In this document: piece after piece, positions 28,111-28,686 of the stretch
Numbering within the stretch: position 1 is the stretch's first letter
How the letters are laid out: each line of letters begins with the position of its first letter
Origin: Escherichia phage Elenatom
Sequence record: PP925844.1
DNA: 64,000 nucleotides
Direction: 5' to 3' (one strand)
The notes under the pieces: model-generated
Databases searched by the model: none
What the model saw: only the letters and a program-made list of their open reading frames with translations
Told to the model about the DNA's origin: nothing
Made by a program: the position numbers and the translations under genes

Positions 28111-28324
28111 ATTTGACTTCCTCACCAGTACATAAATCGTATTCAACTAAACGAATAGGTTCATGAATGCCATATCCTTGAACAGAAATTTCTGTCGTAG
28201 GATAAATTCCATTAATATCACCCATGTTCCATGCTTCGTTAAATTGCTGTTCGCCTGAATTACTAAACCACTCGGCGAAAGCATTTAGCACATCTTCAGA
28301 ACCTTCAATAATTATCTTTGCCAT
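28103..28324 (-). CDS. Hypothetical small protein
   Basis: 73-aa ORF; TAATG overlap with upstream stop. Confidence 0.45.
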   Translation of the reverse strand: MAKIIIEGSEDVLNAFAEWFSNSGEQQFNEAWNMGDINGIYPTTEISVQGYGIHEPIRLVEYDLCTGEEVKYD

Positions 28325-28686
28325 TACAAACTCTCGGTGAAGGTACGAGCGATAACGTCGCGCTGCTGTTCCGGAGTCAGAGAGTTAAAGCGAACTGCAT
28401 AACCGGATACACGGATGGTCAGCTGCGGATATTTTTCCGGATGCTTAACTGCATCTTCCAGAGTTTCACGACGCAGAACGTTAACGTTCAGGTGTTGACC
28501 ACCTTCAATTTTAACTGTAGGCTGTTGCTCAATTTCAATTTCACGGGCATGCAAACCATAGAAAATTTCTGGGTCTACAAAAGAGTCCTCTTTAAAGGTT
28601 TTAGAGACAATAATTCGTGCTTGAATACCATCTTCAAAATAAATAGTACCTTTATGTGTGCCTTCAAGAATTTGATATGCTTTCAT
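28324..28686 (-). CDS. GrcA/YfiD-like autonomous glycyl-radical cofactor protein
   Basis: C-terminal ...[60 protein letters not shown] carries glycyl-radical motif RVSGYAV; 3-prime half is locally GC-rich. Confidence 0.75.

Follow-up and report, generated by a model that had tools for sequence, protein, structure and literature searches.

A T-even phage homologue of grcA whose radical-domain segment appears to have been overwritten by host DNA

How a phage gene comes to consist, over one half, of DNA that is letter for letter that of its bacterial host is the question raised by vs.6 of the T-even phages, which we analysed in a stretch of 64,000 nucleotides (nt) from Escherichia phage Elenatom (PP925844.1; this whole stretch is referred to below as the window). 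The gene encodes a homologue of GrcA (YfiD), the Escherichia coli spare part for pyruvate formate-lyase (PFL). Gene and function are already known from vs.6 of T4 and its product Y06I, and the biochemical role has been at textbook level since 2001; the question here is the origin of the DNA. Our overall reading, which we hold with high confidence, is that vs.6 encodes a PFL spare part and is an old phage homologue of grcA whose radical domain was overwritten by host grcA.

An inspection of the letters alone (the sequence-only reading) had assigned about the last 60 residues of the protein to the GrcA domain, had described the coding DNA of this part as richer in G+C (GC) than its surroundings, and had proposed that this segment was derived from the host; all of this held up on quantitative comparison. 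Residues 61–120 are identical to residues 68–127 of E. coli GrcA (60/60). Nucleotide similarity to grcA, on which the sequence-only reading had staked its proposal, amounted to 97.3% over 28324–28508 in each of the 5426 complete E. coli genomes compared, and it included an exact run of 169 nt (the host-derived patch, Table 1). Within the patch, about half of these genomes were 100% identical to the phage and most others differed by one mismatch (proportions in the sampled rows). In a search with the whole window, the patch was the only match present in all 5426 genomes, the other E. coli matches being limited to one genome (52 nt) and to a tRNA-Tyr-like sequence on 219 plasmids. The GC content was 0.492 for 28324–28508, compared with 0.337 for 28509–28686 and 0.352 for the whole window, which places the patch among the top 0.64% of the window's 185-nt windows (z = 3.2); equally high peaks occurred elsewhere, in the tRNA cluster and its flank (35.1–36.7 kb) and in part of gene 12. 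At third codon positions (GC3) the values were 0.439 for the patch, 0.203 for the N-terminal half and 0.241 ± 0.041 for the open reading frames (ORFs) of the window, the patch lying in the top 0.17% of 56-codon windows. Both measures make the patch an outlier; the step in composition is sharp (28508/28509), and the GC-rich run singled out by the sequence-only reading was found at about 28359–28382.

The radical-domain protein is 100% identical across many Enterobacteriaceae, in which the grcA genes differ at synonymous sites. Synonymous divergence (dS) between the patch and E. coli grcA was 0 (0/43 sites), and in the N-terminal half it was saturated (Fisher p = 1e-13). The grcA genes of Salmonella and Citrobacter were about 89% identical in nucleotides to the phage tract though encoding the same protein, and the closest Escherichia other than E. 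coli shared only a 77-nt exact run with the patch. Because species that encode the same domain differ at synonymous sites and dS to E. coli is 0, the patch is specifically E. coli DNA. Tequatroviruses isolated on Citrobacter, Yersinia or Salmonella keep the E. coli-type patch (99.4% in Citrobacter phage PhiZZ23), so that the patch reflects the E. coli history of the lineage and not the host of isolation.

The N-terminal half has a different history, but not the one that had been supposed: the sequence-only reading took it to be unrelated to GrcA, and this did not stand. On its own, this half matched residues 28–66 of E. coli GrcA (BLASTP E = 3e-5; about 33% identity over 39 residues), and an hhalign comparison of 10 phage with 10 host N-terminal halves extended over all 59 columns (probability 96.7%, E = 4.4e-10). 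The host-like pattern SIWL..ARC.VAK..ED..EYREV is seen in intermediate phage sequences, for example at locus L101. Judged by these alignments, the N-terminal half is a diverged, collinear homologue of that of GrcA. The alternative that a captured host module was fused by illegitimate recombination to an unrelated phage N-terminus would agree with the sharp composition step, with a Pfam match confined to residues 60–101 and with the low BLASTP identity in the N-terminal half; we consider it very unlikely in view of the collinear homology, of the intermediates of the L101 type and of other T4-like phages, in which the whole gene has phage composition and the C-terminal part is about 80% identical in nucleotides to hosts.

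Homologues of vs.6 with ordinary phage composition are also found in T5-like, Aeromonas, jumbo and other phages, and in these lineages the C-terminal coding part is about 70–85% identical to any sampled host grcA. Between the window and Mosigvirus ATK47, dS was 0.048 in the patch, compared with 0.49 in the N-terminal half and 0.86–2.2 in four flanking genes (p = 4e-4 and 1e-11). Across about 640 records of E. coli T-even phages, the patch was at least 97.6% identical to that of the window in the sampled rows, with five records in the 90–95% band, and identity in the N-terminal half went down to 87.6%. By these divergences, the patch is much younger than the gene that surrounds it. Since the N-terminal half is homologous to GrcA and phage homologues without a patch exist, a complete phage grcA homologue predates the patch, and the event was thus a partial replacement of this resident homologue, not the fusion of a host module to a foreign N-terminus.

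The same gene in Klebsiella phage vB_VIPKPNUMC01 (Jiaodavirus) carries a patch of another origin. Its phage-type N-terminal half is 73% identical in nucleotides to that of the window, and its left junction is displaced by no more than about two bases from that of the E. coli phages; its patch is 94–96.4% identical to Klebsiella grcA and 88% identical to E. coli grcA and to the patch of the window, and it encodes Klebsiella-specific residues (ETLLDAVEH). With one Klebsiella grcA allele as the query, 109 phage records matched at 95–97.6%, those listed being phages of Klebsiella and Raoultella, and E. coli phages reached at most 88%. The patches of the E. coli and Klebsiella phages differ from each other (dS = 0.51) about as the two host genes do (dS = 0.60). 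For the window gene, dS in the patch was thus 0 relative to E. coli and 0.51 relative to the Jiaodavirus orthologue, the pattern in the N-terminal half being the opposite, and the patches are flanked by phage-type sequence that is conserved across phage genera. Because co-divergence from one ancient capture cannot give a phage–host dS of 0, at least two host-specific replacements must have taken place, the radical-domain segment having been overwritten on each occasion by the grcA of the host that the phage itself infects.

These data also bear on the possibility that grcA was acquired once, long ago, and that its nucleotide identity was kept by selection on codon usage or on an RNA or DNA element. 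Purifying selection on the domain is indeed extreme, since its sequence does not vary (100% identity) among many Enterobacteriaceae, and the codons of grcA are typical of highly expressed host genes. Hosts with an identical domain nevertheless differ at 10–25% of nucleotides, and therefore constraint on the protein does not fix the synonymous sites. Moreover, the patches match either E. coli or Klebsiella specifically, according to phage group, identity has fallen to about 80% in other phage lineages that encode the same domain, and no unusual signal overlaps the patch; an Rfam search at the gathering threshold over 27.0–37.5 kb found only tRNAs, with no RNA family on the patch. A single ancient acquisition is accordingly highly improbable.

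That T-even phages keep the radical-domain half matched to their hosts by recurrent recombination with the chromosomal grcA, E. coli-type in Tequatrovirus and Mosigvirus and Klebsiella-type in Jiaodavirus, is a stronger claim, to which we give even chances. Position 240 of grcA, a common T/C polymorphism of E. coli, is also polymorphic in Tequatrovirus and Mosigvirus and is the only variant that phages and host clearly have in common. Two rarer E. coli variants (C-to-T and T-to-A) coincide with phage variants; three such coincidences would arise by chance with a probability of about 0.02–0.08. Several observations weigh against repeated exchange, or against the reading as a whole. No multi-site haplotype was common to phages and E. 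coli, the four-variant patch of O157 typing phage 3 reaching at most 98.2% identity in the 5426 genomes, and most variants of the phage patches look like private mutations that arose after transfer. The case for many separate events within the E. coli phages is weak, at best suggestive, and a single transfer from host to phage, followed by spread from phage to phage among Tequatrovirus and Mosigvirus, is possible and fits the E. coli data equally well. The other T4-like lineages sampled (L089–L100), whose genomes measure about 165–180 kb, had no fresh patch and were 72–85% identical to the sampled hosts, and therefore the process is not general. The vs.6 protein scored 154.9 bits (residues 20–120) with the NCBIfam GrcA equivalog model TIGR04365, below the cut-off of 170, because its N-terminal half has diverged (E. 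coli GrcA scored 234 bits); the product is best filed as a phage-type GrcA homologue rather than as a strict equivalog. Finally, the recombination event itself is one that we infer from sequence. A claim of many very recent independent conversions in E. coli phages was considered and dropped, since no multi-site haplotype matched.

Other loci showed further peculiarities. Cronobacter phage Pet-CM3-4 (L091) is among the unpatched T4-like loci. Two IMG/VR contigs also stood out. On L103, which is T4-like and no shorter than 91 kb, the gene (1501–1893) was about 86% identical to Haemophilus grcA, with 56 nt in one exact run, and on L111 (1501–1797) it was 91% identical to Yersinia grcA, with host-like GC content along its whole length; they could represent additional host-related patches, or else bacterial contigs wrongly labelled as viral. 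In Escherichia phage vB_Eco_Some (OZ034686.1, L166:1324–1764), the host-identical patch of vs.6 contains a tandem duplication of about 79 nt, after which the frame is shifted (following ARTF) and the protein truncated; this is either a real duplication within a repeat-free patch or an assembly error.

The ends of the patch are consistent with exchange between homologous genes. At the left junction, the phage reads GTT AAA A|TT GAA GGT and the host GTT CGC G|TT GAA GGT. The position was the same in 13/13 alleles of E. coli T-even phages examined; it is where the nucleotide similarity between phage and host collapses, and it is no more than a few residues away from the beginning of the structured C-terminal domain, which in E. 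coli GrcA comprises residues 61–127 by nuclear magnetic resonance (PMC8683613). The right junction falls within the last few codons of vs.6, where the phage-type 3' tail has five synonymous differences from E. coli (host TTT ACT GAA AGC CTG). In other T-even phages, host-type states reach one, two or three codons further into this tail. The ends are nested across alleles for the first three tail codons and the pattern is broken further on by L086 (AGC), so that the nesting is suggestive only. Among the alleles examined, a single one lacks the AGT codon and only T4 lacks GAG; a potential ribosome-binding site of the overlapping ORF downstream is annotated at these codons in the T4 record, and one might speculate that this site explains their retention. 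The tail of the Klebsiella Jiaodavirus gene is largely phage-type as well (TTC ACA GAG), having TTC and GAG in common with the window and ACA at the Thr codon.

The function proposed for the protein follows from its similarities. In a phmmer search against PDB, the best match was E. coli GrcA (6OWR, E = 9e-42), followed by PflB, with which residues 58–120 aligned end to end over positions 697–759 (E = 5e-26), approximately the fragment that PFL loses on oxygen cleavage. Gly95 is equivalent by alignment to Gly102 of GrcA and Gly734 of PflB, the radical position being taken from PMC8683613. According to the same article, two spare parts for PFL have been validated, T4 Y06I and E. coli YfiD: the PFL-activating enzyme installs the radical, after which the spare part binds oxygen-cleaved PFL (cPFL) and activity is restored. 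Y06I acted in vitro as an autonomous glycyl-radical cofactor that rescued cPFL (Wagner et al. 2001, as reported in PMC8683613), and the N-terminal half of GrcA is needed for binding and activation of cPFL (PMC8683613). The suggestion of the sequence-only reading that the module might repair host PFL, as reported for a T4 YfiD-like protein, thus agrees with what is documented for Y06I (PMC8683613).

The second partner that it had suggested, the oxygen-sensitive phage enzyme NrdD, fared less well. NrdD (9893–11710, minus strand) and NrdG (8804–9358, minus strand) are both encoded in the window, as stated, and a spare part for NrdD that is activated by NrdG would fit with this proximity. All glycyl-radical enzymes suffer the same oxygen cleavage, and spare parts for others are conceivable (PMC8683613); an older paper on T4-like genomes guessed at a role in nucleotide metabolism (PMC1524935). 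Yet BLASTP of the protein against NrdD of the window gave only a weak alignment outside the radical region (E = 2.5), whereas the domain is identical to that of E. coli GrcA and matches PflB from end to end. According to a 2026 review (PMC13450708), spare parts have been identified for no class of glycyl-radical enzymes other than formate-lyases. Overwriting by host grcA makes sense only with the host PFL system as the partner. We therefore give a role with NrdD rather than host PFL very little probability. Between nrdD and nrdG, and overlapping each of them at one end, is an ORF with an HNH endonuclease domain (9264–9896, minus strand), which probably represents a mobile homing-endonuclease gene.

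Taken with PFL as the partner, vs.6 would act as follows. The host activase PflA would install the radical on Gly95, and the C-terminal domain would replace the fragment that oxygen cleaves off host PFL, so that production of acetyl-CoA and formate by fermentation would be restored in the infected cell. The benefit to the phage would presumably be that an infected cell no longer makes its own GrcA; fermentative energy metabolism could plausibly be kept running in a microaerobic gut host in which protein synthesis has been shut off. As to origin, the radical-domain segment of the E. coli T-even lineage (Tequatrovirus, Mosigvirus) has been overwritten by the chromosomal grcA, the likely route being homologous recombination (gene conversion) during infection, with the conserved domain supplying the homology and the junctions lying where this homology ends. 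A host-identical tract, once present, would lend itself well to further exchange. Recombination of T4 with short stretches of homology in the cell is efficient, for example in marker rescue from plasmids. The sequences themselves establish the identity of the gene, its mosaic structure, the host specificity and that the patch is relatively young; the mechanism of recombination, its timing and any selective benefit, such as a domain matched to host PflA and PflB, are what we infer from this pattern. That the mosaic is an assembly or contamination artefact, host reads having been merged into a phage contig, would explain why identity to the DNA of the propagation host is exact, but it has next to no probability, as hundreds of phages that were sequenced independently, among them T4 in the separate deposit X04567, have the same 169-nt tract, mosaic and left junction, and an uninterrupted reading frame runs in phase from the patch into the phage-type flanks.

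Table 1. Positions in the window of vs.6, its parts and its putative translation signal.
Feature	Position	Strand	Basis
vs.6 / Y06I-type phage GrcA coding sequence, 120 residues + TAA	28324..28686	-	ORF list, Pfam Gly_radical, match to T4 ORF 63.1
AT-rich N-terminal half of vs.6, diverged homologue of the GrcA N-terminal half	28509..28686	-	GC 0.337, GC3 0.203, hhalign, saturated dS relative to E. coli
Host-derived patch, 169 nt, equal to E. coli grcA nt 200–368 exactly; encodes the structured glycyl-radical domain, phage residues ~60–116	28340..28508	-	longest common substring
Gly95 GGT codon in RVSGYAV, predicted glycyl-radical site	28402..28404	-	translation, alignment to 6OWR and 1CM5/1H16
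Phage-type 3' tail, last five codons TTC ACC GAG AGT TTG + TAA	28324..28339	-	alignments
GAGGT Shine-Dalgarno-like sequence, closely upstream of the vs.6 ATG, overlapping the stop of the upstream gene	28690..28694	-	sequence read directly

The identity of the gene is supported by its surroundings. The 2.2 kb around it were 99.9% identical to Shigella phage CM8 (Tequatrovirus) and matched about 900 phage records; by this similarity the window belongs to a T4-type phage of the genus Tequatrovirus. The ORF list with translations gives vs.6 an ATG start. It is 98.3% identical in nucleotides to T4 ORF 63.1, with 118/120 residues the same, and its product matched Pfam Gly_radical (PF01228) with E = 2.5e-18 and 67 bits (cut-off 22.2) in an alignment that reaches the end of the model. 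The gene is part of a co-directional early cluster (denV, vs.8, vs.7, vs.6, vs.5, vs.4, regB), and its stop overlaps the start of the next gene (TAATG). A scan for promoters and terminators at vs.6 found nothing separate above shuffled expectation. In PHROGs, the family is phrog_1209, listed there as of function unknown, and in 2006 the gene was listed as conserved in 6/6 T4-like genomes (PMC1524935). An antisense ORF (28318–28707, plus strand, 129 residues) was set aside as a shadow of the real vs.6 gene. Two genes downstream of vs.6, at the position of T4 vs.4, an ORF (27844–28110, minus strand) matched Pfam Acb2_Tad1_hairpin (E = 2e-20) and encodes an anti-CBASS sponge-type protein, labelled 'anti-CBASS protein 2' in one related phage record.

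Several other parts of the window stood out in the searches for host similarity and composition. The only other match to an E. coli chromosome (19752–19803, 52 nt) is 94% identical to an unannotated site in the single genome of strain BE104. Eleven tRNA genes (Arg, His, Asn, Tyr, Met/Ile-CAT, Thr, Ser, Pro, Gly, Leu and Gln) are located at 35845–36862 on the minus strand; T4 has 8 tRNA genes. On 219 E. coli plasmid records there is a tRNA-Tyr with 87% similarity to the tRNA-Tyr region found here. Neither of two GC peaks, at 35127–35485 (0.51) beside the tRNA cluster and at 56112–56579 (0.49) where gene 12 (short tail fibre, by its Pfam match) encodes its C-terminal part, matched E. coli DNA.

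The gene of the window is the counterpart of T4 Y06I (vs.6, ORF 63.1), being the same gene in the same place between vs.7 and vs.5 in the regB–denV early region. It differs from it by two residues (Q54P and R73H in T4) and in that the host-identical tract of T4 is one codon longer at the 3' end, with GAA instead of GAG; on these substitutions, no functional difference would be expected. With E. coli GrcA (YfiD, 6OWR, TIGR04365) the product shares the collinear order of an N-terminal half followed by a structured C-terminal glycyl-radical domain, and the 120-residue phage protein has the stand-alone GrcA-type architecture (about 14 kDa, terminal RVSGYAV domain). Unlike GrcA, it is 7 residues shorter, its coding DNA is AT-rich outside the patch, and its gene lies in an early cluster and not between ung and eamB. 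The GrcA-like genes of T5-like phages, Slopekvirus, Karamvirus, Aeromonas phages and jumbo phages likewise encode a small two-part protein with a near-invariant domain but have no recent host patch, being about 70–85% identical to sampled host grcA. The nearest parallel is provided by the psbA and psbD genes of cyanophages, for which, by title and abstract, patches of host-like sequence and G+C content were read as intragenic recombination between host and phage (Sullivan et al. 2006, PMC1484495). These are also phage metabolic genes with a host-like patch and composition; compared with that summary, the case described here concerns an enteric host, a T-even phage and one tract only, whose left junction is fixed at a domain boundary and whose dS to the host is 0.

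We found no account of the vs.6 mosaic or of recombination between phage grcA and host in the literature searched, which did not include the T4 genome review and the primary 2001 paper, so that a prior mention is possible. The repeated, host-specific overwriting of the radical-domain segment is a modest and testable addition. It provides a clean natural case of exchange between homologous genes of host and phage in the T-even group, which is usually regarded as almost without homology to host DNA, and it illustrates that a local shift in composition inside a phage gene can mark the partial replacement of a resident homologue, as well as the capture of a new gene. Were this process still going on and favoured by selection, for instance for compatibility with PflA and PflB, vs.6 would be a clear 'host-tracking' auxiliary gene of enteric phages, and it would provide direct evidence that T4-type phages recombine with the host chromosome in nature, despite the degradation of host DNA.

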